The notes under the pieces are model-generated. The model worked only from the letters and a program-made list of their open reading frames with translations, had not been told where the DNA came from and did no database searches. Made by a program: the position numbers and the translations under genes. This document shows, one piece after another, positions 1-17,629 of a stretch of 64,000 nt of DNA. The stretch's first letter is position 1. Each line of letters starts with the position of its first letter. Location: contig CANOSP010000011.1 of NCBI GenBank assembly GCA_947569705.1, forward strand, positions 485 through 64,484. The letters are read 5' to 3'. This DNA comes from an uncultured Erysipelotrichaceae bacterium (GTDB taxonomy: Bacteria > Bacillota_I > Bacilli_A > Erysipelotrichales > Erysipelotrichaceae).

Positions 1-3000
1 TCCGGTTCATCTCCTTCATCAAATACCATTGTATCATATTGGAAATCTCCATCCACATTTTTATCAGGCTTCCATTCAGTGATTTCTTTAATGTTTTCAT
101 CTGCTTTTCCGTCTCCATCGGTATCCACATTGACATCCGGTTTACCGTCACCGTCACTGTCGATGCTTATATCAGGAATACCATCACCATTACTGTCAAT
201 ATTGATGTCCGGCACATTATCACCGTCTAAATCTATATTGATATCCGGTCTGCCGTCTTCATCTGAATCAATGTTAATAGATGGTTTTATTTCTTTTCCG
301 ACCGAATCATAAGTGAAATTAATTTGTTTATAATCCTTGATCGGTTTCCATGAATGCATTATAGCGATATTCGTCATTGGTTTTTGAGCATCTTTAGAAA
401 TATTGATATGAGGTTTAAAATCACCTTGATTATCAATATTGATATTCGGAATTCCATCATCGTCAGTATCCACATTAATCACTGCTTTTACACTTGTGCC
501 TGTGCAGTATTCCTCAGGGAATCCGTTATCAATATCTTGTTTCACACACTTGGTTGGTTTCCAATCCGTTTTCTTTAGAATCACTAAGTTAAGATCAGGT
601 TTACCATCATGATCGGTGTCGATGTTCAACTCAGGCTTCCCATCCCCGTTACTATCAATATTTAAGTCGGGGATACCATCACCGTCACGATCTCCGTTAA
701 TCACAATCCATTTACTTTCATCGTTTGTATCTTTCCACTTAATGTTTAAATCAGGACAACCGTCACCATCAGGATCATTGAAATCAGGTTTGCCGTCACC
801 ATCCACATCGACATCAATTTTCTTCAGTTCTAGTTCATGACAGCTTTCGGTATTTGTATTACCTGCATTGTCCGTGGCAATAACACAAACTTTATATTTG
901 CCTGTTGTTTCACTGATGGTAATGCTTGCCTTTTCTTTAGTGACACTTAATTTGCCCTCTTTCATCAGTTCTTCACCTGAGCGAGCAACGGTATCCAGCT
1001 TATATACCTTATAGCTGATTTCCTTTGTGCCGCTGACTTTTAGATTATCTTTCGCATCACTTGTGGTAATCTCAAATGCCGTTCCCGGTTTAAAGAAGAT
1101 GCCGCCGCTGATTTTATTAATAATATCCTGTAACTTATTATTCGTATCCTTTGCCTTAATACCTTTTACTTTTGGCGCAGTTTTATCGATCTTGACGAGT
1201 TCTTCTTTTTCCTTAGTGATCGCTCCGCTTTCCTTCTTCATCCAAAAGCTTTGATTTGTTTCGCCTTCTTTGGATACTGTGACTTCATTCGGTTTCCATG
1301 TGCTTTGATCCAGTGACAAGTTGATATATTCGATATGATCGCTGATGATATTTACATCTTGATTCGTCCACTTGCCTGCATAGGCTGTATTGTTTCCGTC
1401 ATTGATTTCTAAATGATACCAATCATCTTCAATCACATCTTCATTCACTATCAATGTTCCGTCTTTATATTTAAAAGTGTAATTCGGATAAGCTCTGTTT
1501 AAGGCGGTTGCGTCTCCCTTGATCGCATATCCCCCTGCTTCACTGCTTGCTTTTGCGGTAGTGCTTAGCTTTATATCATTCTCTTGAATAATATCCTGCG
1601 TTCCGTTCCATGAGACTAATTTAGATCTAAAATCTTGATAGGTCAGAACAGGATTTGCTTCACCTTTTAATCTGTCCTTATTATCAACGATAATTTCAAT
1701 ACTTTTCGGCAGCACTTGTACACTGACGAGTTTACTCAATGGTTTCTCTGAATCGGCAGTTCGCGTTACTTTGATGTTGATGCTGACATTGCCGCTTGCC
1801 TTTAATGCATCAAACTCCGCACTGTTTCCGTTAATCGTTGGGTTCGAAATATATGTGGTATTATCTACTTCAAACTGATACTGCACATTCGTACTGCTTG
1901 AATCATCCTGAAGACTGCTGATAGTGAAGTGATCTCCGTAGATAATTCTTCCCATATTCGTTACCGCCAGTTCACTTTCTTTTGAACCCAGTATGTGTAA
2001 AGTTCCGTCTGCCTCTGCTTTCTCATAATTGCGGTTTCCTTGTTTTAATACATGAAGCTGTATATCCTTGCCTTCTTCTTCCGAATAGCTGTAATGGATT
2101 GTTTTTCCGTCATTCGTATATGCGATATTATTATCAACACTTGTATCAACAGAGATATAATACTTCATATCCGGAACACTTGCTCCGCCCTCATTGCTTG
2201 AAATATCCTGTTCTAAAATAATCGGATCTACGGAACCGTCACCATTTGCCACATAGGTGACTTCTTTGAAGGAGATCGTTTGTTGTGCCTTTGTAATATT
2301 GATCGGCAATTCAATTATTTTATCACTGAAATTGCCGCTTGGATCATGACTTACCGCTTCGACAATCACTCTGCCGATTTGACTCGGAGTCAGTGTCGCG
2401 TTCAGTACAGTCACCGATCCATTCGCATCGACTGCTATTACATCGGTAGGACTTCCCGCTTTTAAACGATACGTTACACTGCTTCCGGTCGGATTTCCTG
2501 CCGTATATAATTGAAAACTCTTGCCTTTCGCATATACTTCACTGTATGCCGCATAAGCATCACCCGTTTTAGTTAATTCATTTCCTGCTTCATCCGTATA
2601 GATGAAATTTTGCGCTCCGGCTGTAACTGTGAATTCCAGTTCTGCGATCGCATTTGCTTGTCCGCTGATTCCTTGCTTTTCGGCAACGATGATTGTTGTT
2701 CCTACTGAATGAATCGTTACTGCGCCGGTACTTTCATTTACTTCTATGATTCCGGTTGAACCACCCTTAATGCGGTACTTCACCGGGTTCGGATTGGTGC
2801 TTCCCTTTACCGTCGCATATACCTTTACGCCTGTATCGGTTAAAGACACACTCTTTTTCGTAATCATATTCACTGCCGCACTTGTTTCATAGAAATACAG
2901 CGGTTCCGCATCAGCTTCCTCTACCTTTACCGTTACCTCTAAATCCTTAGAACTCCAATGATCAGATACAGTTACTGTAAAATGATATTCCCCTACCGAT

Positions 3001-5180
3001 AACTTGCCTTTGGTGGTTATATCACCCGTACTTGCATTCACCGCAAAGAAATTGGCATTTCCTCCGGGTTTCAATCCATAAGTATACTCATAATTACTGC
3101 CGCCGATTGTCGTAGGAGTACCGGGCATACCGGTGATTTTAGCAACCTTACCGTTCATTTGAACATTTGCCTGATTAGCGGTAAAGGTCGGAATCGTATT
3201 ATCCTTAGAACCACTCGCCGGATTTACGACACCGTTTACCTCTTTATAAATAATAATTTCTTTCTTTGTCGTTGCCGGGAGATAGTTATCATTACCGCTG
3301 CTCGGATCATCAGCAGCTGTCGCGCTGATTTCTACCTTACCGAAGTCGCCGTTTCCCTTGTAAGTAATTCTGCCCGTATCAGCATCTATATCAATTAAGC
3401 CAAAATCACCGCCGGTCACCTCATAAGTTATTTTAGGACCCTTTGGATTTGCCGTCGCTGTTTCGCTCCACGCTGTTCCTGCTTCAGCGATTGATTTTGT
3501 CGTTTGTGCTTGATCATCAAAACTTACCGTCAAGTTTGTTTTCGCTACAACAAGTGTAGTGCATACCTTAGAATCAGATGTTTCCGGAACAGGATCTCCG
3601 TACATATCCACCGCAGACACACAAAACTTATGATTTCCTGCTTTTAAGCTGCCGTTGACAACATCAGGTCCGTTACTTTTGATTTTAACATTCAATGATG
3701 TACCGGTAGAAGCACCGCTGCTGTTTAAACCGTCAATTTCAAAGTTTTGATAAGTATTATCACCGTTTGATTCTACTGTATAAGTAAGCGGCATTAAGCC
3801 TTGTCGATTCACGATAATGGTACCTATTGTCTGCCCTGCATTAACATTCTTGCTGAACTCATATTCCTTTCCGCTGCTCGCACCACTTTGCGGCTGCTTG
3901 GTATAAGTCAATTTATGAGATTCTATAATCTCTAACGGCATAATGTTAGAAATCGCAGAGCTTTCCACAGGCAGTTGTGAAGAAGCTTCATATTCTTCAT
4001 TGATAACAGCTAATTGATACTTTCCGACAGCCACTCCTGTGAGATCTAACGAATATTCATTCAATCCGCTTTTCGTCAAATCACCTAACTTATAATACTT
4101 TATCTCTGTGGCAGCTTCATTGTATAAAAGAATGGATAATCTTGTATTAGTTCCTGTATTTGCATCAACCGATAAAGTAATTGTACTGTCTTTCACTACC
4201 TTTTGTGTTGTCTGTGCTTTATATTTGATATTATTCAAACTTGCCGTTAAATTAGAAACAATTCTTAATTTATTAGGATTCAGTTCATTTTTTAAATTCA
4301 AATTCACCGTATCAACTTCATAGCTATGCCAATTACCGTCTGTATAAGAAGTGTTAGCCGCAAAATTAATTTTAGTACGATCGATTGTTGCGAAAGGTCT
4401 CAGACCTAATGTATTAATAGTAGCCTGATTTTGCGGCCAACGCTTTGCCGCAATACTGTCTATCATATTTGTAACAGAATTTAAAACCTCACCGGTATCT
4501 AACACGGTCATGTTCCCTCTGTCAGCATTGCCGACAGAATTTCCGATATTCACTTGTCGTATATTGAAATAACCATTTTTCGTAGAGTCATCAGCGGAAT
4601 TTGGAAATCTTCCCGCACCGTCCAGCCAATAGCCAAAATCATTTTGATTCGTATCTTTATAGGCACGATCATTGGTAGTTAAGCCGAGTGTACCGCCGTT
4701 CATGACAGCACCGACGGTCGGTAAAAACGGAGCTAAATTCAAAATAGGAGTTTCTTTTGAAGTAAGTTGAATTTTAGCAACTTCTTCCTTAAGCGGTGTA
4801 ACAGGACAATAAGGGATATAATAAATATTTTTATTAAAATACTTCAAGCAATATTTTTCACGCATTGCCGGATCTGTTTGAATGGTCGTTGATATTTTAT
4901 TAGGGTTATTACTTTCGTCATCCTCTTTTGATAAAATCGCCATATTAGTAATCGGCTTACTGCTCATAATCACATAATCATCTGTGTCTTTACCAATATC
5001 CCATATGATTTCATTACCGTTATATTCACCCAGGACTATTTTTTGCCCGCTTTGAAGATTAAAGGACGGTGCAGACTGTGCATGTAAAGTAGCCACCACT
5101 CCGATATTATTTACATACATATATGTTATCAATACAGTGCCTAATAAGAACAAAGAGGTCGCTAATATCTTTTTCCACAT
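1..5180 (-). CDS. Giant surface/adhesin-like protein, paralog 1 (runs off the left edge; absent from the ORF track)
   Basis: Manual translation from ATG 5180 (RBS AAAGGA): MWKKILATSLFLLGTVLITYMYVNN... signal/TM segment, DUF6273-like head (LGEYNGNEIIWDIG...YWL...GLRPFATID), Ig/cadherin-like and MBG-like stalk, DxDGDG repeats. The frame at position 3 (..DGDFQYDTMVFDEGDEP) matches the 5180 start and the C-terminal region of 7320-13457. Not every codon was checked. Confidence 0.85.
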   Translation of the reverse strand, partial: MWKKILATSLFLLGTVLITYMYVNNIGVVATLHAQSAPSFNLQSGQKIVLGEYNGNEIIWDIGKDTDDYVIMSSKPITNMAILSKEDDESNNPNKISTTIQTDPAMREKYCLKYFNKNIYYIPYCPVTPLKEEVAKIQLTSKETPILNLAPFLPTVGAVMNGGTLGLTTNDRAYKDTNQNDFGYWLDGAGRFPNSADDSTKNGYFNIRQVNIGNSVGNADRGNMTVLDTGEVLNSVTNMIDSIAAKRWPQNQATINTLGLRPFATIDRTKINFAANTSYTDGNWHSYEVDTVNLNLKNELNPNKLRIVSNLTASLNNIKYKAQTTQKVVKDSTITLSVDANTGTNTRLSILLYNEAATEIKYYKLGDLTKSGLNEYSLDLTGVAVGKYQLAVINEEYEASSQLPVESSAISNIMPLEIIESHKLTYTKQPQSGASSGKEYEFSKNVNAGQTIGTIIVNRQGLMPLTYTVESNGDNTYQNFEIDGLNSSGASTGTSLNVKIKSNGPDVVNGSLKAGNHKFCVSAVDMYGDPVPETSDSKVCTTLVVAKTNLTVSFDDQAQTTKSIAEAGTAWSETATANPKGPKITYEVTGGDFGLIDIDADTGRITYKGNGDFGKVEISATAADDPSSGNDNYLPATTKKEIIIYKEVNGVVNPASGSKDNTIPTFTANQANVQMNGKVAKITGMPGTPTTIGGSNYEYTYGLKPGGNANFFAVNASTGDITTKGKLSVGEYHFTVTVSDHWSSKDLEVTVKVEEADAEPLYFYETSAAVNMITKKSVSLTDTGVKVYATVKGSTNPNPVKYRIKGGSTGIIEVNESTGAVTIHSVGTTIIVAEKQGISGQANAIAELEFTVTAGAQNFIYTDEAGNELTKTGDAYAAYSEVYAKGKSFQLYTAGNPTGSSVTYRLKAGSPTDVIAVDANGSVTVLNATLTPSQIGRVIVEAVSHDPSGNFSDKIIELPINITKAQQTISFKEVTYVANGDGSVDPIILEQDISSNEGGASVPDMKYYISVDTSVDNNIAYTNDGKTIHYSYSEEEGKDIQLHVLKQGNRNYEKAEADGTLHILGSKESELAVTNMGRIIYGDHFTISSLQDDSSSTNVQYQFEVDNTTYISNPTINGNSAEFDALKASGNVSINIKVTRTADSEKPLSKLVSVQVLPKSIEIIVDNKDRLKGEANPVLTYQDFRSKLVSWNGTQDIIQENDIKLSTTAKASSEAGGYAIKGDATALNRAYPNYTFKYKDGTLIVNEDVIEDDWYHLEINDGNNTAYAGKWTNQDVNIISDHIEYINLSLDQSTWKPNEVTVSKEGETNQSFWMKKESGAITKEKEELVKIDKTAPKVKGIKAKDTNNKLQDIINKISGGIFFKPGTAFEITTSDAKDNLKVSGTKEISYKVYKLDTVARSGEELMKEGKLSVTKEKASITISETTGKYKVCVIATDNAGNTNTESCHELELKKIDVDVDGDGKPDFNDPDGDGCPDLNIKWKDTNDESKWIVINGDRDGDGIPDLNIDSNGDGKPELNIDTDHDGKPDLNLVILKKTDWKPTKCVKQDIDNGFPEEYCTGTSVKAVINVDTDDDGIPNINIDNQGDFKPHINISKDAQKPMTNIAIMHSWKPIKDYKQINFTYDSVGKEIKPSINIDSDEDGRPDINIDLDGDNVPDINIDSNGDGIPDISIDSDGDGKPDVNVDTDGDGKADENIKEITEWKPDKNVDGDFQYDTMVFDEGDEP

Positions 5181-5445
5181 ATCACTCATATCCTTTCTAT
5201 CAAATATTTATATAAATAAAGTTAAAGTATAAGCAGCTTCCCATTTGCTGCTTTACAATTTCTGTATATACAAAACATAAAACCCATAAAATCATAAACA
5301 AAAAAAGCGGTGTTATACGGTTATAACATATACTCTTCCACCCAAACGACGATATCAAATTCAAAAAGGATTAAAAATATACAAAAAAAATATCAATTTT
5401 TTAGAACATCAAAATCAACCCAAATAAAACTGTTTTTCGGCCGCA

Positions 5446-6492
5446 TCAAAGCTGATTGAAACTGTTCTCTACAAGCTCTTTAAAAGGCATATTCCAATAA
5501 TAAGTATAAAGCAGTTCATAATACGTTCCACCGTATTGCTTTAAGGAATCATGAACCGCAAAAAGTTGGTTCAGCTGTTCTTGACTCAGCTTTTTAATGT
5601 CATCTTCACAATGCGCATAATTTAATAAAATTTCATAAGCTTCTCTCGGAGTATGAATCGGTATATTCTCAAAATATAAATCTGAAAATAATGCTTTACC
5701 GTCAATACGTTCTTGATCAGAACGATAATTCTCAGTTAATTGATAACCTCCGTACAAAGTACCTCCGCACATTAATACAATCATTGCGATTTTCACATAG
5801 GGCAGTGCATAAGAAAACATATGCAATGGATAAGAAAACCACGTTTGATAAGAAACCGGCGCCAGTGAGGCACATGCCGTTACTAACAGTGCTTCTATAG
5901 AAGATGCTCTGAAAGACAGTTTAATATCATTTTCCTTTTCGTATTGCTCAATCGCTTCTTTGAGATATTTTTTGCCGTAAAGCAATCGACTTTTCACTGT
6001 TCCCAAAGGGCAATGAAGCAATTCGGAAATTTCTTTATTATTTAACTGAACAAAGAAATATAAAATCAGCACTTCTCGATACTGCGGTTTTAACTCTAAC
6101 AAGCATCTTTGAAGAATCTGCATATCCGTAGAATAATGATTCATATATTCAGGACAATATTCCATTCGATCTTCTGTTTCATTGCTTAATATTTCAAGCT
6201 GAGAATCACTCATTTGCTGATCTCTTTTTCTTCTTAGCATTGTTATGGTTTTAGAATGTGCAATTTTTCCGATCCAAGCTTTAAACTGCGTCGGATCTTT
6301 TAACGCTGATATTGATCGCTGTACCTGTACAAAAGTTTCCTGTACTATTTCTTCCGCATCCGCATGATTTTTTGTCAGTTGAAAAGCAATATAATAAACC
6401 AGACGACGATAACGGTTGTATAGTTCATTAAAAGCTGTTTCATCATTTTCCTGTAAACGAAGGACCAGTTGCGTCAGTGTTGATTTTTTCAT
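5446..6492 (-). CDS. ECF-type RNA polymerase sigma factor with C-terminal TM segment and extra domain
   Basis: Region 2 (AFNELYNRY..DAEEIVQETFVQV..FKAWI..IA) and region 4 (YREVLILYFF..LNNKEISELLHCPLGTVKSRL). Hydrophobic IAMIVLMCGGTLYGGY follows. Start set at ATG 6492 after AAAGGA (ORF track start 6507). Confidence 0.9.
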   Translation of the reverse strand: MKKSTLTQLVLRLQENDETAFNELYNRYRRLVYYIAFQLTKNHADAEEIVQETFVQVQRSISALKDPTQFKAWIGKIAHSKTITMLRRKRDQQMSDSQLEILSNETEDRMEYCPEYMNHYSTDMQILQRCLLELKPQYREVLILYFFVQLNNKEISELLHCPLGTVKSRLLYGKKYLKEAIEQYEKENDIKLSFRASSIEALLVTACASLAPVSYQTWFSYPLHMFSYALPYVKIAMIVLMCGGTLYGGYQLTENYRSDQERIDGKALFSDLYFENIPIHTPREAYEILLNYAHCEDDIKKLSQEQLNQLFAVHDSLKQYGGTYYELLYTYYWNMPFKELVENSFNQL

Positions 6493-6650
6493 ACAAATTC
6501 CTTTCATAACAATTTACTTTATTTTAAAATAACATTTTTATCATTTTTTGTAAATATGTAAATTCTGTAAGAATAATAGAAATCCTCTGAAAAACTGTAA
6601 AACAAATAAAAAAATTTGCTTTTTACAAAACAACATGTGATTTTAAATTT

Positions 6651-6676
6651 AAAAAAAACAGAGATAGTTCCCTGTT
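6651..6676 (-). terminator. Intrinsic terminator after 6688-7200
   Basis: AACAGGGA-ACTA-TCTCTGTT followed by a T run on the minus strand. Confidence 0.65.
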
Positions 6677-6687
6677 AAAATGTAAAA

Positions 6688-7200
6688 TTAATCCGCGATA
6701 TTTTTTATTTTTGTATCATGACGAAGACTCGTCATCATATGAGTAATACCGATATATGCCGTTGCGTCGATTATGATTGCTTTTTTACTTGCTTTGGGAT
6801 GGATTTTCCACAGTGCGACAACCTTACGATTTCCTTCCTTAAAAAGAAAGTGTTTCTTAACCTCTACGATCGCATTAATATCATCATAAGCAAGCCGTTT
6901 TTTACGCATATTTAAGAATGTGTAATCGATTAAACCGTATTCGTAAAATTCAATTTTGTCAAGCAAAGTAGATAATTGAAATAAAGCAAGAAACGCAAAA
7001 ACAAGAAGCAGTATAACTGCAATCACATCCTCTGATACTTCAATTGATAAAAAGATGGCAACGATAAAGATTATCATAACAATTGTAAAAATTATCGGCA
7101 TCATTTTTTTACTTTCCCCAACCATCTTTAAGGAACCGAAATCTTGATCTGTTCCGCTGATTCCATCTTGTTGAGTAGACAGTTTTCTTTTATATTCCAT
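6688..7200 (-). CDS. Hypothetical membrane protein (2 TM plus soluble C-terminal domain)
   Basis: 170 aa ORF with RBS GAGGT and two hydrophobic stretches. Confidence 0.7.
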   Translation of the reverse strand: MEYKRKLSTQQDGISGTDQDFGSLKMVGESKKMMPIIFTIVMIIFIVAIFLSIEVSEDVIAVILLLVFAFLALFQLSTLLDKIEFYEYGLIDYTFLNMRKKRLAYDDINAIVEVKKHFLFKEGNRKVVALWKIHPKASKKAIIIDATAYIGITHMMTSLRHDTKIKNIAD

Positions 7201-7292
7201 AAGTTAAACCTCATTTCTCTAATAGTTTATCATTTTTCAGCGTAAGTATCAATGATGAGACTGAATGATGTTAAAACATTTACAAACAAGCG

Positions 7293-7317
7293 AAAAAGAG
7301 CGGAGCTTAATCCGCCC
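7293..7317 (-). terminator. Intrinsic terminator after surface protein 2
   Basis: GGGCGGA-TTAAGC-TCCGCTC-TTTTT just after the stop codon. Confidence 0.7.
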
Positions 7318-7319
7318 TG

Positions 7320-10300
7320 TTATTCAGATAAATGACTTGTTTTTCTTTTGTATAACAGATAGAAAGTGATTCCAAACGAGAATAAACACAGACCGCTGTA
7401 CATCATTAAATTAGTTGCGTCACCTGTATTTGCTCCGCCCATGCTTGTAACGGGATTATACATGCCTTTTACGGATGTATCGAGTTTATCCGCTTGAGGT
7501 TCATCGTTCTTAGGCACAGTAGGATCATTTGGTTCTTCCGGTTCTTCAGGGTTTTCAGGATCTTCCGGTTCATTAGGTTCACTGAAATCCATAATATCAT
7601 ACGGATAATCTCCTTGAATGGTTTTGTTTGGTTTCCACTCTGTTATTTCTTGGATATTATCTTCCGGGACACCGTCACCGTCCTTGTCAATATTAATATC
7701 CGCAACGCCGTCTCCGTCACTATCGATATTAGTGTTAGGAATTCCGTCGTCATCCGTATCAATATTAAGATCAGGGATACCATCTCCGTCTATATCTACA
7801 TTCACATCAGGAAAGCCGTTGCCGTCAGTGTCAATATTCCAAACCGGCTTGATTTTTTCCGTATCGTAGAGGAATTTATTTGATGTATAATCCTGATTTG
7901 GTTTCCATGTATCATGTTCCGCTACATTTAACATAAAGCCGACTTTTTGGATATTAATATCCGGCTTCATATCGCCGTCGGTATCGATATCAATATCAGG
8001 AATTCTATCCCCATCGGTGTCAATGTTGATTAATGGTTTTACACTTGTACCGGTACAGTATTCTTCTAAGATTCCGTTATCAACATCTTGTTTCACACAC
8101 TTGGTCGGTTTCCAATCTGATTTTTTAAGAATCACTAAATTAAGATCAGGTTTGCCGTCATTGTCTGTATCAATATTCAAGTCAGGTTTCCCATCCCCGT
8201 CACTGTCAATATTCAAGTCAGGGATACCATCATAATCTCTGTCACCGTTAATCACAGTCCATTTCTTTGTATCATTTGGATCTTTCCACTTGATATTTAG
8301 ATCAGGACATCCATCACCATCCGGATCATTGAAATCAGGCTTACCGTCACCGTCCACATCGACATCGATCTTTTTGATGTTTAGGTCTGAGCACTTTTCT
8401 TCGGATTCATTCGTCGCATTGTCTATCGTTGTTGCACACACTCGATAGTTTCCGATATTGTTAATCTTGAAGCTCAGTATCTTATTCGTTCCCGGTTTTG
8501 CACTCTTTTCTTCTATCGGTGTTGTGCTTGTCATCATGCCTTGCGCATCTAATTCATAGACCTGATAGCTGACTTCCTTGACTTCACTCACCTTTACCGT
8601 TGCTCTTGTGTTTGGCTGAGGATCTTCTGTTTTGATCTCTACCTGCACTCCCGGTTTAAAGTAATGTCCTAAGGTGATTTCATTTAAGATATTGGATACT
8701 CCGTCTTGATTTACAGGATAGCCTGTGATACTTACAATCTTCGGTTTCATCATATCTATCTTTACATGATCTTGAAGCTTTTCACTGATCGCTCCTTTAT
8801 GCAAACTTGTACCGCTCGGATCGATTCTGAAGTAGATGTCTGTTTCATTGTCATCTTCTTTGTTTATTGTAAAGCGCTGCTTGTTCGCATTCGTAAATGT
8901 CACTGTATCTGATATTTGGTCATACACTCCTGCACTTGCCGTGGTGTTCGCTGTATCAATCACTACATCGACTAGATAGTTATGCCACTTATCTGATGTT
9001 ACTGTATTTCCGTCCGGATCCTCTAAATGATACCAACTGTCACTTGGTTCATCTTGTTTGATTGTCAAGCTTCCTGATTCAAGCTTGATTTCATAATGCT
9101 TCGTATTTCCGTTCAATTCATTTGTGCCATAGCTTCCGCTGATGTCATACTTTCCTGTTGTTTTTGTATCTTTAATTGCTTTGCCGTTTTGTTTTGCACT
9201 TGTATTCTTAGGAATCGGAAAATCATTCATACTGTCAGTAAATGCAAATGCATTCGTACTAGGCTGTTTGAATTTGTATGTCGGGAAGGCTTCTCCCACA
9301 TAGATTTCTTCATCCTCATAGGTTAAGGTGATTGGTTTCTTTTTTACAATGATAATCTGTTCTCCATAGTCTCCGCCGATCGCATTACAATCATCCACTG
9401 CCGGATCAAATGCATCCTTTGTCTGACATACCTTTATGATTACCTGTCCGCTTCCGATTGCCGTTATCGGCTGACTTGTTTTCGTATTCACCGCTGCCGT
9501 ATTAACATCAAGTATACTTGTATCATCGACATAGAAATACACAGGTACTCCATTCTTATAGCCACTTGTTATTTTTGCCTCTATGTTTGTATCTCCATAG
9601 GTCATGCCGGGGGCATACAGATTTAAACTTGTCGGCGGTCGATCTGTTGTTTCCAATATCGTTGTGGCTTGTTTACTGTTATAGTTTCGATCCTCAGGGG
9701 ATGTGGCTGTTAAGGTTGCGGTACCTGCTTTCCCTAAGGTTTTGAAGCTTTGATCTTGTCCGCTGATCGGTGGTTGTGCTTCGGCAATCGTATTATCACT
9801 GCTTGATAACAATACATCTCCCTGACTCAGCTTGCCGTTATAGGTTGGCTGGATCGTTGCCGGTGTTTTCCCAATCGTCCATTTCGGTGTATTCACAAAG
9901 GCAAAGTCCTTTTGTTCTGCTTTTTCAATGACGATCTTCGCATAGATGCATTGTGCCGCATAACCGTCATGTGCATTCATACATGCTTTTACATATGCAT
10001 CGCCGCCGTTTCCGTAATCTCCGTCCGGATCACTGGCATTGATGATATTGAAATGATTCAAGTTATTATGATCAATCACATCTTCATCTACACTGATTCC
10101 TGTTGATTCAGCGATCGTTACTTCGCTGTATGTGGAATCAATATTCGTCTTTACATCGATTGTTCCGTTTTGTTCATACGTCTTTTTATACACCGGTACA
10201 TTCTTTGTTCCATACGTATCGCTGAGTGCCAACTTCGTTCCTGCGATAGGATCAATAAAGTAGAAATCTGCCTGTGCATCCACTATCACAATAATCACAT

Positions 10301-13300
10301 CAACTGTTCTTGTGTTTTTATTATTATCAGTCACATCAACTTGAATATAATACTTATTCCCTGTACCGTGATTGCTTAAATCATTTGCGGTAATGTCCTG
10401 ATTCAGTGTGATATATCCGGTTGAGGTTACGGTAAAGAGGCTTGCGTCAGCATTTTGATTCCCGTTGTTCGTACTTTTCTTATAAGTGCTTCCCGAAACA
10501 CTGACTTGTGCCATTGCGGTTCCTTGTTTTGCCGTTCCGCCGTTTGGATCGGCACTTGTATTCAGTGCTTTCTTTAAAGTCGCATCAGGTGTATAAGTGA
10601 CTCCTGTGGTACCGCCGTTTTCAATACTTCCTGTCACCTCAATATTGCCCGGCACATACACTTGAATCACTCTGCCTGTTTGCGTTGTGGCTGTTTCATA
10701 GTTATCATCACCGTTTAAGGTTCCGGTTAATGTCGCACTTCCCGCATCACTCGCGTTGCTTGTCGGACATACCTGCCCTTGTGCGTTGATTGTAAAAGGT
10801 GCATTCAAACTCGTATTGCTTGAAGTATATTGAATCGTTTCGCCGCTTTTTGAATACGTTGAAGTAACACTTGCCGGTACACTCACACAGGCACCGCCCA
10901 CCGCTAGCTTTAACATACTTGTATCAGGAAATGCGATTGTCTGCGGATATTTATTAACATTTACAATCAAATCAGTATCTACTCCTGTTGTACCGTAAAT
11001 ACCACCGGTAATATGTGCTTTGATTTTCACATTGTTTAAAGTATTGGAATCACTTGCCTTCTTCACTGTCGCCTGGACAGTACTTGAACCGGAAATACTG
11101 ATTACATCATTGGGATCCGGATTCAATGAATAGGTAATCACGGTATTCGTTAATGCCCCGTTCGTTGTTTCGATCAGCTTAGTATTAAAGGTACCGCCGT
11201 TGTTTGGCTCTCCGCTTGGATCATACGTTATCGTATACGTATTGCCCGGGATAATACTTCCTGATTTTTGCGGTTCTTCCCAACCGACTCCTGATAGAGA
11301 TGCCGCTTGAATCGTAATCGTTTTCGTAGCTGTTGTTGTTTGTTTGTTCGGTGAAGTACTATCCTTTACTTCAACCACAATCGTATAGCTACCCGGTGTT
11401 AAACCGTTCGCACCGACACTTGTATTAACATACACATTGCCGTTAGAATCAACGTGGAAGGACCCATTATTACCCTGACCGCTCGGAAGCGTATAGGTAA
11501 ACGGTGCCGTACCGCCGCTCACATCAATATGAGCGATCTTATTTGCGGAAGTATAACTTGTCGGTGGCTTAGCCGCACTGCTTCCCGCAGTAATATTAGT
11601 TTTATCCTCCACATAGTTCGCTGTAATACCTAATTGGAATGTGATTGTTTTAGTTGTAGTAGCTGCTTCATAATTATCTGTCGCATCAACCTTTGCCTGA
11701 ATCACAACACTTCCCGTCGCATTCGCCGCAAATACAATATCGGCATTATCACCTGCATTTGATGAAGTAAACGGCAAACCGCTTGATATGATGTTTCCGT
11801 TTCCTGACACAAAGGAATATTCAATCTTAACATCATTATTAGCTAAATCATTATTTGTATGAGTCGCATGTTCACTGTGGGTTGTTGTACCGGTGGTGCT
11901 GCCTGAAACATAAGTCGTTCCTTTATCATCTTGATCAAAAATAATTGTCGGTTGCGTCTTGGCAACATCAAATGTGGTACAAACCCTTGAGTTACTCGTT
12001 GCAGGATCCGGGTCTTTGTACGCATCCTTTGCGGCAATACAAAATTTATAAGTCCCTGCTTTTAACCCGCCGTTCACTAAATCAGGCGCATTGCTTTTTA
12101 TTTTTATATCCAGTGACGTACTGCCTGATGAATCATTTGCATCCAAACCGTCAATCTCAAAATTTTGATGCGTATTGTCACCGTTCGACTCTATTGTATA
12201 AGTAAGAGGCATAACACCTTTCGGACTTACATCGATCATCCCGACTTTTTGTCCTGCATTCACATTCTTACTGAATTCATAATCCCCTGCCGTCGCTCCG
12301 CTTTGCGGATCCTTCGTATAAGCTAATTTATGCGGCTCTACAATCTCGATTCCCATCATTTGCGAAATCGGTGAGGACTTTGCGGCTCTGCCGGTAGATG
12401 CATCAAAATGCTCATTTGCGACAGCTATTTTATATTTCCCTACCGGTATTCCCGTTAAATCAAACTCTTTGGTATTTAAGGCTTTATAATAAAGCAGCTG
12501 ATTTCCCGCATCGTTAAACACAAAAACGGATAATGTATCATTGGCAGTTGCATCTAATTGAATTTTGGCATTTTTAACTACTTGTTTATCTGCAATAGAA
12601 TTCCCTTTATATTGCATATCACTAAAAGTAACTTGATAGCTTGGATCCGCATATCTGATTTTCAGTACTCCGCTTCGCGGATTACTTTTTAATACATTTT
12701 TTCCGATCGTATGATCCAATGCATAAAGTATATTAGGACTTTTTAAATGCGAAAAAACCGAAAGTTCAAGATTTTGCCACTCTTTCCCTATATACGCCCA
12801 TTCATAAGAAATATACGCCGGATAAGCTGTCGCATTGGTTGACGAAGACGAATACGCTTGCACAACCGAACTGTCCCTTCTGAAATATGCACTTTGCCAT
12901 GCTTTGTTATGCTTAATATATGCCTTCTCCGATATAATACATACCTCAGGCAAATCATCCAATCCAAGACTTCCCGAAGTAAAATCATCGATTCCGGGAA
13001 CATAACCATGTTGTAAATTACCCACTTTACCTGAAACTGCCAATACTTCCGTACTCTCAAATTCATTACCCGATAAACTAGCTGTATAAGCGTCATCATA
13101 GGATTTCGCCGTAAGGTATCCTTGCGAATGTGATTTTCCTGCCACATCGGTATAAAAATCACACATATCTATTTCGCCGCCTTTTCTCGGTACCGTATTA
13201 TTCGTATTACTGTTACAGTTTTGTACTGTTCCTATATAATGATGCATAGCATAATACCCGGTATTGTTTTTACTAACGGTCCAAACCGATTCTTCACCGC

Positions 13301-13457
13301 TCTCATTTGTTCCGACAATCACTTGTTCGCCCGGCTCTAAAACCTCTAAATTTCCGGCAGCAGACAGATTATTGTTATATTGAAGCACTGTAAAAGATGC
13401 GGAGAAAATTCCGATAGTCAGAAACAATAATAAGATCATTTTATTTCGCATATACAT
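7320..13457 (-). CDS. Giant cell-wall-anchored adhesin-like protein, paralog 2 (2045 aa)
   Basis: N-terminal signal/TM, variable head, Ig/cadherin-like repeats, MBG-like domain (KKKPITLTYED..ESGSLTI), many DxDGDGxPD Ca-binding-like repeats, EPxxPE linker, GANTGD + TM + basic tail sorting signal. Confidence 0.9.
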   Translation of the reverse strand: MYMRNKMILLLFLTIGIFSASFTVLQYNNNLSAAGNLEVLEPGEQVIVGTNESGEESVWTVSKNNTGYYAMHHYIGTVQNCNSNTNNTVPRKGGEIDMCDFYTDVAGKSHSQGYLTAKSYDDAYTASLSGNEFESTEVLAVSGKVGNLQHGYVPGIDDFTSGSLGLDDLPEVCIISEKAYIKHNKAWQSAYFRRDSSVVQAYSSSSTNATAYPAYISYEWAYIGKEWQNLELSVFSHLKSPNILYALDHTIGKNVLKSNPRSGVLKIRYADPSYQVTFSDMQYKGNSIADKQVVKNAKIQLDATANDTLSVFVFNDAGNQLLYYKALNTKEFDLTGIPVGKYKIAVANEHFDASTGRAAKSSPISQMMGIEIVEPHKLAYTKDPQSGATAGDYEFSKNVNAGQKVGMIDVSPKGVMPLTYTIESNGDNTHQNFEIDGLDANDSSGSTSLDIKIKSNAPDLVNGGLKAGTYKFCIAAKDAYKDPDPATSNSRVCTTFDVAKTQPTIIFDQDDKGTTYVSGSTTGTTTHSEHATHTNNDLANNDVKIEYSFVSGNGNIISSGLPFTSSNAGDNADIVFAANATGSVVIQAKVDATDNYEAATTTKTITFQLGITANYVEDKTNITAGSSAAKPPTSYTSANKIAHIDVSGGTAPFTYTLPSGQGNNGSFHVDSNGNVYVNTSVGANGLTPGSYTIVVEVKDSTSPNKQTTTATKTITIQAASLSGVGWEEPQKSGSIIPGNTYTITYDPSGEPNNGGTFNTKLIETTNGALTNTVITYSLNPDPNDVISISGSSTVQATVKKASDSNTLNNVKIKAHITGGIYGTTGVDTDLIVNVNKYPQTIAFPDTSMLKLAVGGACVSVPASVTSTYSKSGETIQYTSSNTSLNAPFTINAQGQVCPTSNASDAGSATLTGTLNGDDNYETATTQTGRVIQVYVPGNIEVTGSIENGGTTGVTYTPDATLKKALNTSADPNGGTAKQGTAMAQVSVSGSTYKKSTNNGNQNADASLFTVTSTGYITLNQDITANDLSNHGTGNKYYIQVDVTDNNKNTRTVDVIIVIVDAQADFYFIDPIAGTKLALSDTYGTKNVPVYKKTYEQNGTIDVKTNIDSTYSEVTIAESTGISVDEDVIDHNNLNHFNIINASDPDGDYGNGGDAYVKACMNAHDGYAAQCIYAKIVIEKAEQKDFAFVNTPKWTIGKTPATIQPTYNGKLSQGDVLLSSSDNTIAEAQPPISGQDQSFKTLGKAGTATLTATSPEDRNYNSKQATTILETTDRPPTSLNLYAPGMTYGDTNIEAKITSGYKNGVPVYFYVDDTSILDVNTAAVNTKTSQPITAIGSGQVIIKVCQTKDAFDPAVDDCNAIGGDYGEQIIIVKKKPITLTYEDEEIYVGEAFPTYKFKQPSTNAFAFTDSMNDFPIPKNTSAKQNGKAIKDTKTTGKYDISGSYGTNELNGNTKHYEIKLESGSLTIKQDEPSDSWYHLEDPDGNTVTSDKWHNYLVDVVIDTANTTASAGVYDQISDTVTFTNANKQRFTINKEDDNETDIYFRIDPSGTSLHKGAISEKLQDHVKIDMMKPKIVSITGYPVNQDGVSNILNEITLGHYFKPGVQVEIKTEDPQPNTRATVKVSEVKEVSYQVYELDAQGMMTSTTPIEEKSAKPGTNKILSFKINNIGNYRVCATTIDNATNESEEKCSDLNIKKIDVDVDGDGKPDFNDPDGDGCPDLNIKWKDPNDTKKWTVINGDRDYDGIPDLNIDSDGDGKPDLNIDTDNDGKPDLNLVILKKSDWKPTKCVKQDVDNGILEEYCTGTSVKPLINIDTDGDRIPDIDIDTDGDMKPDINIQKVGFMLNVAEHDTWKPNQDYTSNKFLYDTEKIKPVWNIDTDGNGFPDVNVDIDGDGIPDLNIDTDDDGIPNTNIDSDGDGVADINIDKDGDGVPEDNIQEITEWKPNKTIQGDYPYDIMDFSEPNEPEDPENPEEPEEPNDPTVPKNDEPQADKLDTSVKGMYNPVTSMGGANTGDATNLMMYSGLCLFSFGITFYLLYKRKTSHLSE

Positions 13458-13762
13458 CTTCCTTCCTCAAGTATGAAAAATCGGACTTTAGATACAGAAG
13501 CCCATATCAAAGAATCATAATCTATGGCTATTAACAGAAACATATATTTTAATATTTATAAGAAAAACAATGATATTAAAATATACCGCTAATACATATG
13601 AATGCCTTGGTATTTCCAAACCAACCAATTCGTACAAAGAAATCATTTCGATAAATAACCTCTTTTTGGGCGTATATGATTGAACATGTATATGAAAAAA
13701 CTGTTTTATTTACACATGATCCTTCAAATTTTCTCATTGTACAATACACGCAGGCTACACAC

Positions 13763-13792
13763 TAGACACACAAGGATCCGAAAACGTGCGCT
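13763..13792 (-). promoter_or_regulatory. Putative ECF sigma promoter upstream of surface protein 2
   Basis: Minus strand AGCGCACGTTTTC-GGATCCTTGTGT-GTCTA; 25/30 identical, with no gaps, to 14995-15024. Confidence 0.65.
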
Positions 13793-13878
13793 AAATATTA
13801 AAATATTTTCATTTATCAGTAAAAAACAAATGCGATGATATAAACTTTTATCAATATAAAATATGCAACAGAAAAGCT

Positions 13879-14871
13879 TCAGCGCTTTGCTTCCTCATAA
13901 GCCTGAATCCATCCGTCTTTATTTAACAGGTCGTAAAAGGGAGAATTATTTTGTCTCAGTTGTTTTACATACGGCAAAAGTTCATCTAACGCTGCTTGAT
14001 TCAACGCATTCAGTTCCTCAGAACAATGTGCCTTTTTTCTGATGATAAAATATGCATCTTGATCGGTGATCTCATGTCTGTATTCCTCATCTAAGACAAC
14101 ACCCTGATTCCATTGATAAAAAGAATATGTACTGACACCGAGAACTGCCGCAAAGCATAACGCCGCAATGCCGGATAACTGAATAGACGCACTGCGCTTA
14201 AAAAACGACAGTTTGCCTAAATTCCATTCGCAAGGCTTGGGGGCTTTACAATGAAAAGCATATAAAAGCAATAGTCCTGTAGGAAAACAGTAAAAAGATA
14301 GTTTTTCATGATGTTGAGATTCATATAAATGAATTTGCTTGCGCAATAACTGCTTACCGGTACGCAGTCTGCTCTTTACCGTTCCTTCCGGTATATCTAA
14401 AACTTTCGCAATCTCACTCATTTTAGCGTCATCATAATACTTTAAAATCAAGGTTTCGCGATAAATATACGGTATATTATCCAACAGCTTTAATACAATA
14501 TCCGCATTACTTTGCTTACGCACGATCACAGAAGGCAGTGAATCTTCACGATCATCGGCGATATCCAATGCCGCCAATGCATGTTCTTCCATATAAATTT
14601 CACGATTCTTACGAAACATATTCTTACAGCGATTGATTAAAATCTGCTTCATCCATACAATCACTACATCCGGATTCTTAAGATGAATAATATTTTGTTT
14701 GATATTAATAAAAGTATCCTGAACAACATCTTGTGCATCTGCTTCATTTTTTGTGAGCTTTAAAGCCATATAATAAAAGGCAGTATAAAAATCATGATAT
14801 AATTTCGCAAATGCTTCCTCATTACCGGTTTGAATTTCTCTGATAAGCTGCGGTAAATCTTCACGCTTCAT
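13879..14871 (-). CDS. ECF-type sigma factor with C-terminal TM segment and extra domain (paralog of 5446-6492)
   Basis: AFAKLYHDF..DAQDVVQDTF (region 2), YRETLILKYY..MSEIAKVLDIPEGTVKSRL (region 4), TM IAALCFAAVLGVSTYSFY. Start set at ATG 14871 after AAAGGAG (ORF track start 14895). Confidence 0.9.
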   Translation of the reverse strand: MKREDLPQLIREIQTGNEEAFAKLYHDFYTAFYYMALKLTKNEADAQDVVQDTFINIKQNIIHLKNPDVVIVWMKQILINRCKNMFRKNREIYMEEHALAALDIADDREDSLPSVIVRKQSNADIVLKLLDNIPYIYRETLILKYYDDAKMSEIAKVLDIPEGTVKSRLRTGKQLLRKQIHLYESQHHEKLSFYCFPTGLLLLYAFHCKAPKPCEWNLGKLSFFKRSASIQLSGIAALCFAAVLGVSTYSFYQWNQGVVLDEEYRHEITDQDAYFIIRKKAHCSEELNALNQAALDELLPYVKQLRQNNSPFYDLLNKDGWIQAYEEAKR

Positions 14872-14994
14872 GATTATTACTCCTTTATCTTTCATATATA
14901 TTAAATTATTACATAAACAAACATTTTTATCAATAAATTATCATAATATTTTTTAATTTGCATTTTCTTAAAATGATAAAAAGTGATCATTAAA

Positions 14995-15024
14995 TAGACA
15001 CATAAAGAATAGAAAACGTGCGCT
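14995..15024 (-). promoter_or_regulatory. Putative ECF autoregulatory promoter upstream of the sigma gene
   Basis: Minus strand AGCGCACGTTTTC-TATTCTTTATGT-GTCTA; same motif and spacing as 13763-13792. Confidence 0.65.
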
Positions 15025-15190
15025 GATTTGTAAACAAAATAATGCAAAATTTTGCGAAATAAGCTTTGTTTAGATTGATTAAATTGTCGTTCATTTCAGA
15101 AAAAAACACTTCATAAAAATAACAACAGTAAGATTCTCAGACTATCGTTTTTGTTAAAAACATGTTATACTAACATACAGGAAAAGGAAG

Positions 15191-16897
15191 ATGTATATGG
15201 AAAAAAACTGGATTAATGAAGCAATATTTTATCATATTTATCCGCTGGGATTTTGCGGGGCTCCTAAATATGCGCATGAACAAACAACATGCCAAAATCG
15301 CATAAAAAAACTCATTGATTGGATTCCTCATCTGCAGGAAATGAAAATCAATGCCTTATATTTAGGGCCGATATTCGCCTCTTATGAGCATGGATACGAT
15401 ACAAGTGATTATCGCTTAATCGATCCGCGTTTAGGCAGTAATGAGGACTTCATGGCTGTATGCGATGCACTTCATGAAGCAGGCATCAAGATTATTTTAG
15501 ACGGTGTATTCAATCATGTCGGAAGAACCTTTTGGGCATTTCAGGATGTACAGGAAAAAAGAGAAGGATCACAATATCGTGATTGGTTTCATAATATAAA
15601 TTTCAATAACCGCTCCCCTTATGATGATCCGTTTTCCTATGAGGCATGGGAAGGACACTACAACTTAGTGAAATTAAATCTGCGCAATGAGGCAACTGTT
15701 CAATATTTATTAGACAGCGTCGGTATGTGGATGGAGGCTTTTCATATTGACGGTTTGCGCTTGGATGCGGCTGACTGTATCGATAAACAATTCTTTCAGC
15801 GTTTAAAAGCTTATACAAAAGAGCGCAATGCTGATTTTTGGCTGATGGGCGAAATTATTCACGGAGACTATTCATTATGGGCTAATCCGGAATTGTTAGA
15901 TTCGGTCACAAACTATGAATGCTACAAAGGATTATATTCTGCGCATAATACAAAAAATTATTTTGAGATTGCATATTCCTTAAATCGTCAATTCGGTAAC
16001 GGCGGCATCTATAAGAATTTGAACCTCTATAACTTCGTGGATAATCATGATGTAAATCGTCTTGCCTCTACGCTTCAAAACAGCGCAGATCTTAAAAATG
16101 TTTATACGCTATTATACACGATGCCGGGTGTTGCCAGTATTTACTACGGCAGTGAATTCGCTATTGAAGGTAAAAAACAAAACGGCAGTGATGATATGCT
16201 GAGGCCGGAATTGTCACTTACCCAATTTTCAAAGGATCATCCGCTGTATCTCCACCTTTGTAAACTCGGTGAAATCCGCACTGCTTACAAGCCGCTGCAA
16301 TACGGTAATTATGAGCAGGTAACAGTACGCAATGAACAATTTATCTTCAAGCGCACTTTGAATGAAGAGACGCTGTTTATCGCGCTCAATGTGGCAGATC
16401 AAGCAATTACGCTTCCGTTTGCGAAAGGAGAACAGGCTTATGATCTGTTCAAAGACAAGATGCTGCAGGCAGAGAACGGTGAACTGAGCATTACCTTGAA
16501 TCCTCATGAAGCGACAATCTTGTATATAGGAACGAATTACCCTACGGTGAAAAACGCAACAAAGAAAAAAACAGTTAAAGCAAAAGCTGATACATTCTCT
16601 GTCAAAAATAAAGAACAAAAACCAAAAGCTGAAAAACAGGACATGAAACCTACCGATGTCAATCATACCGCAAAAGAAATCTCAAAGCAGATACAACCCG
16701 GGGTATATCGTCACTTTAAAGGTAATCAATATGCAGTATTATATATCGCAAAGAACAGTGAAACATCAGAAGCGATGGTCGTCTATCGCCAGTTATACGG
16801 AGATAGTGAGGTTTGGGTACGCCCGTTGTCAATGTTCACGGAAACAGTGCAGTTTAACGGCGAAGCAATTCCGCGATTCACTTATCTTCATAAATAA
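15191..16897 (+). CDS. GH13 alpha-amylase/neopullulanase-like enzyme fused to a C-terminal DUF1653-like domain
   Basis: DGVFNH, GLRLDAAD, GEIIH and FVDNHD GH13 motifs. The tail GVYRHFKGNQY..VVYRQLYG..WVRPLSMF is the DUF1653 signature. Confidence 0.85.
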   Translation: MYMEKNWINEAIFYHIYPLGFCGAPKYAHEQTTCQNRIKKLIDWIPHLQEMKINALYLGPIFASYEHGYDTSDYRLIDPRLGSNEDFMAVCDALHEAGIKIILDGVFNHVGRTFWAFQDVQEKREGSQYRDWFHNINFNNRSPYDDPFSYEAWEGHYNLVKLNLRNEATVQYLLDSVGMWMEAFHIDGLRLDAADCIDKQFFQRLKAYTKERNADFWLMGEIIHGDYSLWANPELLDSVTNYECYKGLYSAHNTKNYFEIAYSLNRQFGNGGIYKNLNLYNFVDNHDVNRLASTLQNSADLKNVYTLLYTMPGVASIYYGSEFAIEGKKQNGSDDMLRPELSLTQFSKDHPLYLHLCKLGEIRTAYKPLQYGNYEQVTVRNEQFIFKRTLNEETLFIALNVADQAITLPFAKGEQAYDLFKDKMLQAENGELSITLNPHEATILYIGTNYPTVKNATKKKTVKAKADTFSVKNKEQKPKAEKQDMKPTDVNHTAKEISKQIQPGVYRHFKGNQYAVLYIAKNSETSEAMVVYRQLYGDSEVWVRPLSMFTETVQFNGEAIPRFTYLHK

Positions 16898-16920
16898 AAA
16901 AGCACACACGTGCTTTTTTT
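16896..16920. terminator. Bidirectional terminator between GH13 and PTS IIA
   Basis: AAAAAAGCAC-ACAC-GTGCTTTTTT between convergent genes. Confidence 0.7.
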
Positions 16921-17004
16921 ATGCTTACTTTTCACTTTATCAAATCATATAGTTTTTATCAGTATGACAAAAACAAATATTAAAGAGTCTTAATGAAAAA
17001 AGGA

Positions 17005-17325
17005 CTATAATTTTAATTGGTATATCGCTCGATGCAGGGTAATAAATTCTTCACACAGGATTTTAAAGGTCTCTGCGCTCATTAATTGATCTTCTGCGTG
17101 TGCCAATAACAATGTCATCGGCATATCAATTCCCGATGCTTCTTCCTGAAGCAGTTTGGTATGAGACTCTTGTCCCTGCTGGAATATTTCATCTCCCTTT
17201 TTGATAAACTCATTTGCTTTAATAAACTCACCCTTTGAGGCTAATTGGATCGCTTCCACATACATAGAACGAGCGGCTCCTACTGATGAAATAATTCTCA
17301 TGCTGATTAATTCGATATGTTTCAT
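17005..17325 (-). CDS. PTS lactose/cellobiose-family IIA
   Basis: IISSVGAARS..LLAHAEDQLM motif. Confidence 0.9.
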   Translation of the reverse strand: MKHIELISMRIISSVGAARSMYVEAIQLASKGEFIKANEFIKKGDEIFQQGQESHTKLLQEEASGIDMPMTLLLAHAEDQLMSAETFKILCEEFITLHRAIYQLKL

Positions 17326-17326
17326 G

Positions 17327-17629
17327 TTATTTTCCTCGCATTCGTATCAGTACATTTTCTAATACTTTTTTCCCATCCAAATTACCGTAACTGTTTAAAT
17401 CCATTACCATAACCGGCTTCCCTTCTGCCATTCCGTCAATTTTCTGAAACAGATAGCGCACTTGCGGTCCTAACAGGATAATATCAGCCTTGGGTATATG
17501 ATCCTTAGCCAATCCTTCTCCTACTGCCCATATTGTCGCATTTATATGCTTAGATGCGGCAGCTTCCTTCATCCGTTTCATCATCATGCTCGTAGACATA
17601 CCCGCTGAGCATATCAACAAAATATTCAC
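17327..17629 (-). CDS. PTS lactose/cellobiose-family IIB
   Basis: ILLICSAGMSTS..ILLGPQVRY. Confidence 0.9.
   Translation of the reverse strand: MNILLICSAGMSTSMMMKRMKEAAASKHINATIWAVGEGLAKDHIPKADIILLGPQVRYLFQKIDGMAEGKPVMVMDLNSYGNLDGKKVLENVLIRMRGK

Follow-up and report, generated by a model that had tools for sequence, protein, structure and literature searches.

Does a sigma factor that is held at the membrane by its own polypeptide chain control the giant adhesin gene encoded next to it, and how might such a protein be switched on? This question is raised by a 64,000 nucleotide (nt) long stretch of DNA from an uncultured Erysipelotrichaceae bacterium (assembly GCA_947569705.1, contig CANOSP010000011.1, positions 485 to 64,484), which we refer to as the window. 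The minus strand of its positions 1-14895 encodes, in this order, an extracytoplasmic function (ECF) sigma factor with a membrane-spanning C-terminal extension (sigA), a giant adhesin (adhesin A), a 170 amino acid (aa) membrane protein, a second sigma factor of the same type (sigB) and a second adhesin (adhesin B). The initial annotation of this region had described two modules (here A and B), each with the order sigma to adhesin and without a separate anti-sigma gene, and had proposed that each sigma senses the surface and serves one adhesin. Both the order and the lack of an anti-sigma gene are borne out: the two pairs of open reading frames (ORFs) are present (Table 1), sigma and anchor form one polypeptide, and Pfam searches detected no anti-sigma domain in any ORF of either module. 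The only gene between the modules encodes the 170 aa protein, which no profile marks as an anti-sigma factor. On balance, we consider it somewhat probable that such a module consists of a one-protein signalling switch, that is an ECF sigma factor held at the membrane and released upon a trigger, together with its target adhesin gene.

Every fused sigma gene precedes adhesin-family sequence

The genome assembly (2.13 Mb in 57 contigs) was searched with tblastn and phmmer for sigma factors of this fused type. Altogether, 25 were identified, each 325-383 aa long, a module number that, like the order of the modules, rests on a fragmented assembly, in which several short contigs contain adhesin fragments only. 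Just two ordinary short ECF-like sigma genes were found in the same genome. All 25 fused sigma genes are directly followed, on the same strand, by an adhesin-family sequence, so that the genome-wide count of pairs proposed in the initial annotation gave a pair for each of them. For 23 of the 25 the downstream ORF is 1700-2667 aa long or cut by a contig end; the other two are short remnants that still match the adhesin family. A contig end cuts 14 of the sigma-adjacent adhesin ORFs, which is probably due to the near-identical repeats that make up the adhesin bodies. This pairing of sigma and adhesin genes is far beyond chance.

The family is present in all eight other genomes of the same genus that were searched (15-27 matches each). 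Outside the genus, a search of 32 genomes representing other genera of this family and order yielded no match at E<=1e-20. In one genome (G002) the complete order sigA, adhesin, small ORF, sigB, adhesin is retained, and the order sigma then adhesin holds at the orthologous loci of five other genomes. Orthologs in four genomes (G005-G008) have adhesin starts of the MWKK type downstream of the sigma. Giant ORFs also follow the sigma genes of two distant members from a JGI metagenome, which share 28-33% identity with sigB. In one of the two (L035:2276-6817, JGI metagenome 3300010163), the adhesin body aligns to adhesin A with 57% identity over 1242 aa, while the N-terminal approximately 290 aa do not align, and the sigma encoded upstream is about 33% identical to sigB. 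Judged from such alignments, heads, bodies and sigmas seem to have been reshuffled between modules.

Sigma genes and adhesin genes differ in their promoters

Promoters recognised by ECF sigma factors usually show GAAC at the -35 and GTC or CGTC at the -10 position. Promoter blocks in the window were defined by footprinting over orthologous loci from five species (module A) or six genomes (module B). An ECF-type block is conserved in both sigma-adhesin spacers. In module A the exact motif, GCGCACG-N15-GTGTCTA, occurs twice in the whole genome, once before adhesin A and once before sigA, and the two sites are identical in 25 of 30 bases. In module B a single block of the spacer is conserved, TAATCC...ATATCGTC, and its exact extended motif is found once in the genome. 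Modules A and B have both diverged at the -35 element, with CAC and ATC, respectively, in place of AAC.

The same distinction between sigma and adhesin genes extends to all 25 modules. With patterns that were partly drawn from the same data in which they were then counted, 16 of the 25 regions upstream of adhesins contained [TC]GAAC-N18-NNC, where 1.4 were expected (P=3e-12), as did one of the 25 regions upstream of sigmas. The housekeeping pattern TTGACA-N16-18-TAnnnT showed the reverse: 10 of the 25 sigma-upstream regions had it, with an expectation of 1.5 (P=5e-6), and no adhesin-upstream region did. The stricter AAC-N18-GTC was counted eight times in the 7.8 kb upstream of adhesins, whereas other upstream regions, 211 kb in total, contained it 19 times, and AAC...GTC with spacers of 16, 17, 19 or 20 nucleotides was absent from the adhesin-upstream regions. 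Chance is an unlikely source of these patterns because the spacing is exclusive, the dichotomy is sharp and the conservation across species is independent of the counts. The -10 triplet differs among the modules (GTC, GGC, TTC and others).

The ECF-type site upstream of sigA implies that sigA is autoregulated. With a position weight matrix (PWM), such a site was detected upstream of this sigma gene only (one of 25); the PWM found none upstream of sigB, where solely the housekeeping-type promoter is conserved. General autoregulation was also examined with ungapped 30-mers compared between sigma- and adhesin-upstream regions, and was rejected: module A alone stood out with its 25 of 30 identical bases, the AT-rich background reaching 22-24.

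Two further elements were observed close to the promoters of module A. Positions 15044-15055, immediately 5′ of the ECF-type sigA promoter, form a perfect 12-bp palindrome, GCAAAATTTTGC, which is conserved across five species. The genome contains eight exact copies, with approximately 0.2 estimated by chance; all eight are intergenic, and of the other seven copies five adjoin genes for large surface proteins outside the sigma modules. From its distribution, the palindrome looks like a candidate operator of a further regulator of surface proteins. The second element is a perfect 15-nt inverted repeat consisting of A and T only (arms 13544-13558 and 13792-13806, 233 nt apart), whose arms lie on either side of the adhesin A promoter and the beginning of the leader. 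The orthologous sigA-adhesin spacers are shorter and do not contain this stretch. The repeat may have arisen by chance in DNA this rich in A and T, may be bound by a protein, or may delimit a segment that can invert.

The sigmas combine an ECF core, one membrane span and a new outside domain

Both window sigmas match Sigma70_r2 (PF04542) and Sigma70_r4_2 (PF08281) within residues ~30-190. Neither has a sigma3 or a sigma1.1 region; the combination of sigma2 and sigma4 only is that of group 4 sigma factors. They score 73.2 and 97.5 bits with the ECF superfamily model TIGR02937 (cut-off 42.9), and none of the named equivalog models (SigW, SigY, SigV, TIGR02954 and others) reaches its cut-off for either protein. 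The nearest solved relative is SigW of Bacillus subtilis, which aligns to residues 14-186 only. Over their full length, including the extension, sigA and sigB are 31% identical.

Alignment and hydropathy analysis revealed a common plan in all 25 paralogs. The sigma4 region closes in a nearly invariant GTVKSRL helix, which is followed by a conserved Y-E-x5-KLxF motif and then by a segment of moderate hydrophobicity (hydropathy mean over 19 aa 0.5-1.6). Between this segment and the main transmembrane (TM) helix lies a stretch of variable sequence that is often basic. The main helix has a hydropathy mean of 1.6-2.4 in all 25 proteins; the net charge is positive on its N-terminal side and neutral or negative on its C-terminal side. 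This charge distribution fits a topology with the N-terminus inside, the C-terminus outside and a single span. The cytoplasmic linker between sigma4 and the membrane is about 40 aa long, and no Cys/His motif is conserved in it across the alignment of the 25 paralogs. An AlphaFold2 model of sigB, built from a 43-sequence alignment, has a mean predicted local distance difference test (pLDDT) value of 80.6 and shows two helical bundles with a short joining linker; the juxtamembrane linker has low pLDDT values (39-50). Neither Pfam nor the paralog alignment revealed a recognised conserved cleavage motif in the sigmas.

The predicted outside part comprises the last 75-110 residues of the paralogs, and modelling the domain alone with the 25 sequences yielded a predicted template modelling (pTM) score of 0.66. 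Pfam and NCBIfam contain no family for the sigma extension, and a Foldseek comparison with solved folds gave no match to the outside domain (best E-value 3.5, probability 0.2). A profile of the domain was also compared with 1.84 billion representative proteins, in which it matched 156 clusters. Nearly all of these are 315-387 aa long with the domain at the extreme C-terminus and thus have the fused architecture, the short ones resemble fragments, and no stand-alone or anti-sigma-linked version was found among these representatives. Between orthologs the three parts are conserved to different degrees: identities are 63-86% in the sigma core, 18-54% in the TM helix and 32-66% in the outside domain.

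Topology and structure prediction, which had been suggested as checks, thus yield a single strong TM helix with a basic N-terminal flank and a confidently modelled C-terminal domain. The extension described in the initial annotation is therefore present with its linker, its one TM helix and its helical domain, but the AHC pattern said to be shared by the sigmas and suspected to bind metal or sense redox is not a feature of the family. The histidine occurs in nine and the cysteine in 15 of the 25 paralogs and the full motif is missing from most of them, so that a family-wide metal or redox site was rejected. AHC is retained in all examined orthologs of sigA and sigB; in this subset it may be functionally relevant. 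The better kept positions of the outside domain form an aromatic-rich core (AY..L..WA, P.YE.LK, YY..L and W..FE).

How the tethered sigma might be switched on

Housekeeping promoters on the sigma genes and ECF promoters on their targets imply that it is the sigma protein, not its synthesis, that is controlled. We infer that regulation runs from the sigma to the adhesin, that the tether is inhibitory and that proteolysis sets the sigma free. The sigma genes, which mostly have housekeeping-type promoters, would probably be expressed constitutively and the protein parked inactive at the membrane. The adhesin genes with their ECF-type promoters would require an active ECF sigma, in the simplest case the one encoded just upstream. 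A cue perceived by the outside domain would then trigger regulated intramembrane proteolysis, with a site-1 cut followed by cleavage by a RasP-type site-2 protease, and the freed sigma core would bind RNA polymerase and turn on the adhesin gene and, in module A, also sigA itself. The main argument for a gate at the tether is that with a sigma active as made, a housekeeping promoter on the adhesin gene would be sufficient.

Three observations would fit proteolytic release. The genome encodes a full-length Peptidase_M50 protein, i.e., a site-2 protease, but such proteases were found in 14 of 14 control genomes as well, and being nearly universal they lend weak support to proteolysis. Small residues (Gly, Ala, Ser, Cys and Thr) make up 50% of the sigma TM helices compared to 27-32% in the other membrane helices of the genome, a comparison whose P value overstates independence since the 25 sigmas are related paralogs; such a composition is compatible with site-2 protease substrates and with helix-helix packing alike. 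In addition, the TM helix and the outside domain evolve faster among orthologs than the sigma core. The sigma/anti-sigma hybrid IutY, cleaved by Prc and RseP, and ECF52, for which the same is predicted, offer precedents (PMC8999054). Several observations weigh against this switch or parts of it. The lack of a recognisable anti-sigma domain, together with a linker of ~40 aa that is modelled with low confidence, provides no evident means of keeping the tethered form inactive. A scan found no terminator-like site between sigma and adhesin in either window module, so read-through from the sigma promoter could yield adhesin transcription that is independent of the sigma. Moreover, about 10 members of the adhesin family are encoded without a sigma gene immediately before them. 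Finally, several modules have nearly identical -35 and -10 elements (AAATCGAAC...GTCT), which makes cross-activation between modules possible. From the proposal that one sigma is dedicated to one adhesin, the link to the downstream adhesin is thus retained, since both spacers carry conserved ECF-type blocks and the pattern is far more frequent upstream of adhesins than expected, but strict specificity is not, owing to the shared elements.

A serious rival, although one that we consider unlikely, is that the sigma works while tethered, in the manner of ToxR and CadC. The holoenzyme would assemble at the membrane and the outside domain would tune it via oligomerisation or conformation without any cleavage, an arrangement in which the gene for a secreted protein of 2000 aa would also be transcribed close to the secretion apparatus. 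A sigma that has neither an anti-sigma domain nor a recognised conserved cleavage motif would suit this mode of action, as would the ~40-residue linker between sigma4 and the membrane, and small-residue-rich TM helices are also suited to packing against each other or to dimerisation. We know of no precedent for a sigma factor acting in membrane-bound form, which counts against this explanation, and a sigma that is both constitutively made and active would bring no advantage compared to an adhesin gene with a housekeeping promoter of its own. Moreover, IutY, the characterised fused example, requires proteolysis (PMC8999054).

Quite improbable, in our view, is a network for adhesin choice, i.e., surface variation, in which the sigmas compete for core polymerase and positive feedback or a common partner outside the cell picks a few adhesins. 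The 25 paralogous modules with their variable adhesin heads would be well suited for such a choice, the promoter elements overlap among modules, and the autoregulatory promoter of module A can yield bistability. Conservation in the outside domain mostly concerns core positions that all paralogs have in common, which fits a shared partner. However, an ECF-type promoter precedes one of 25 sigma genes, so that feedback is not general, and the AT-only repeat pair upstream of adhesin A is the sole candidate for an invertible element that was seen, no recombinase search having been made. In an extended version, to which we assign a decidedly low probability, the approximately 25 modules would form one network deciding on surface identity: the outside domains would read the cell's own adhesin layer, for instance the near-identical membrane-proximal stalks, the tethered sigmas would compete and few adhesins would be displayed. 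If true, this would be surface variation based on sigma factors and without DNA rearrangement.

It is very unlikely that the sigmas do not control the adjacent adhesins at all, the genes being neighbours through joint duplication and the spacer blocks serving another regulator. The missing terminator-like site between sigma and adhesin would fit such a view, and the conserved palindrome beside sigA and other surface-protein genes hints at further regulators. Sigma similarity and adhesin-head similarity are also correlated only weakly (Mantel r=0.23-0.24, p about 0.001), and we do not take this correlation as evidence for interaction because neighbouring genes duplicate together. Against this stand the canonical ECF geometry and fixed spacing of the blocks, the duplication of the module A block upstream of sigA itself and the small number of other short ECF-like sigma genes found in the genome. 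Hardly credible is a protein with two membrane crossings and a cytoplasmic C-terminal domain acting as built-in anti-sigma domain: the second, moderately hydrophobic segment after the conserved KLxF motif is present in all paralogs, but its hydropathy lies below that of the main helix, the charge flanks suit a single span with the N-terminus inside and the C-terminus outside, and the C-terminal domain is unlike any known anti-sigma family.

Owing to their promoter logic, these modules lend themselves as a small natural model for studying the activation of a tethered sigma. They might further supply genetic circuits with many related sigma-promoter pairs, and they suggest how a gut commensal with a small genome might control a large repertoire of surface proteins that bind the host or partners.

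Adhesins, gene calls and flanking genes

Features of both modules are compiled in Table 1. For sigA, the ATG at 14871 is favoured over the opening of the ORF because of a ribosome-binding site and the orthologs, which start at the equivalent Met in four other species. The 170 aa protein has two hydrophobic helices, and its gene (6688-7200, minus strand) has promoter-like and terminator-like sites of its own; the 3′ end of this gene is kept upstream of sigB in five other genomes.

Table 1. Coordinates of predicted genes, protein parts and transcription signals in modules A and B (window positions; TM: transmembrane)
Feature	Position	Strand	Details
ECF-type promoter 5′ of sigA	14995..15024	-	GCGCACG-N15-GTGTCTA; conserved in five species; PWM score 20.9
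Housekeeping-type promoter of sigA	14905..14933	-	TTGATA-17-AATAAT with TG extension; best sigma-70-type match in the region; in five-species block
sigA	13879..14871	-	330 aa from ATG at 14871; ORF opens at 14895
sigA ECF core (sigma2 and sigma4)	first ~188 aa	-	Pfam, NCBIfam and paralog alignment
sigA TM helix	14134..14190	-	most hydrophobic 19-aa window; Kyte-Doolittle mean 1.96; net charge +3 before, 0 after
sigA outside domain	13882..14133	-	~84 aa; included in paralog domain alignment
ECF-type promoter of adhesin A	13763..13792	-	GCGCACG-N15-GTGTCTA; sole spacer block conserved in five species
Adhesin A	7320..13457	-	2045 aa; secreted, wall-anchored giant surface protein, judged by sequence features
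Terminator-like hairpin 3′ of adhesin A	7297..7318	-	8-bp stem with 5 G-C pairs, then T run
170-aa two-TM protein between the modules	6688..7200	-	weak DUF6560 and DUF6585 matches only
Housekeeping-type promoter of sigB	6526..6554	-	TTTACA-17-TATTTT with TG extension; in block kept in six genomes
sigB	5446..6492	-	348 aa from ATG at 6492; ORF 5446-6507, start at 6492 likely
sigB TM helix (approximate)	5734..5808	-	hydropathy peak; long predicted helix, residues 234-269
sigB outside domain	5449..5694	-	beta-hairpin and five short helices; pLDDT 84-94 in full-length model
ECF-type promoter of adhesin B	5348..5373	-	TAATCC-N-CGTC; N18 geometry, ATC replaces AAC
Adhesin B	3..5180/5189	-	runs off window edge; 1801 aa on contig

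Adhesin A starts with a signal-like segment, contains repeats rich in aspartate and glycine and ends in GGANTGD, a TM segment and KRK. Adhesin B, which is 43% identical to it over the C-terminal 720 aa, matches the Pfam families Cadherin and MBG_2 and has a predicted GGAITGD sorting signal on the contig. The C-terminus of the adhesin family (for example 7320-7470, minus strand) consists of GGA[NMLI]TGD, a hydrophobic segment and a basic K/R tail, and, by this arrangement, is a putative TGD-type variant of the LPXTG sorting signal. Among the other surface proteins of the genome, several have PNTGD or a similar motif at the C-terminus and some are anchored differently; the genome contains two sortase genes. 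The heads of the adhesins vary among the 25 modules. In the long adhesin leaders, Rfam identified no riboswitch or known RNA at E<=1.

One adhesin-family gene without a sigma gene is located at the other end of the window (62968-63999, plus strand). It has an MWKK start and, read by eye, no AAC-N18-GTC upstream. The divergent gene (57582-62774, minus strand) encodes a wall-anchored hexosaminidase of family GH20 (1730 aa) that also has F5/8 type C, laminin-G-like and FIVAR domains. The modules are flanked by ordinary genes for sugar utilisation: positions 15191-17629 encode an alpha-amylase-family enzyme with a DUF1653 tail and the IIA and IIB subunits of a lactose/cellobiose-type phosphotransferase system, after which follows a gene for a Glu/Gln-type tRNA synthetase (17965-19431). 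The conserved housekeeping methyltransferase RlmD is also encoded in the window; its homologs, 53-57% identical and labelled [Clostridium] innocuum, Longicatena, Dielma and Erysipelotrichaceae bacterium, assign the genome to the Erysipelotrichaceae.

Comparison with known sigma-sensor systems

The proposed switch resembles pro-sigma-K and pro-sigma-E of B. subtilis in that a sigma factor is held inactive at the membrane until a membrane-embedded protease releases it. These are, however, group 3 sporulation sigmas with short N-terminal pro-sequences and without a TM helix or an outside domain.

Closer in architecture is IutY of Pseudomonas putida (ECF243), a sigma/anti-sigma hybrid that is activated by cleavage with Prc and then RseP and is constitutively active when truncated (PMC8999054). 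Like the proteins described here, it combines an N-terminal ECF sigma, a single membrane span and an outside domain in one polypeptide and has no separate anti-sigma. IutY differs in its FecR-type anti-sigma extension, its TonB-dependent receptor partner, the Gram-negative envelope and its targets in iron uptake. In contrast, the present family has no FecR or other anti-sigma domain detectable with Pfam, belongs to a Firmicute host, carries a novel helical outside domain of ~80 aa, lies next to adhesin genes and reaches 15-27 copies per genome.

ECF52 (SCO4117 of Streptomyces coelicolor), for which proteolytic activation has been predicted (PMC8999054), and the related actinobacterial groups ECF48 and ECF53 also have an ECF sigma with a C-terminal extension that includes TM helices and an outside part. 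Their extensions, of up to 400 aa, combine an anti-sigma domain of the zinc-finger (ZAS-like) type with a proline-rich region and a domain that binds carbohydrates. An HxxxCxxC zinc finger, a proline-rich region and a carbohydrate-binding part are all absent from the proteins studied here according to the alignment of the 25 paralogs and Pfam.

With regard to copy number, the SigI/RsgI sets of Clostridium thermocellum and the ECF/anti-sigma/SusC sets of Bacteroides are comparable, since they too comprise many paralogous sigma-sensor units per genome, each located beside dedicated surface or secreted proteins and driving their expression (PMC4711584, PMC10575876, PMC7826278). They differ in having a separate anti-sigma protein; SigI is not an ECF sigma, and the sensors are carbohydrate-binding modules or FecR-like domains.

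In the main text of the 2021 ECF classification, no Firmicute group is described with an extension consisting of one TM helix and a domain of ~80 aa. Fusions of a sigma to its own membrane sensor have been described in a few cases, most of them in Proteobacteria and Actinobacteria, to which the present family adds a Firmicute version with a minimal new outside domain, without a recognisable anti-sigma part and with 15-27 copies in genomes of ~2 Mb. It also adds a strict placement before giant adhesin genes and a clear promoter logic. Fused sigma-sensors as such are already known; new here are the outside domain, the class of targets and the unusual copy number.

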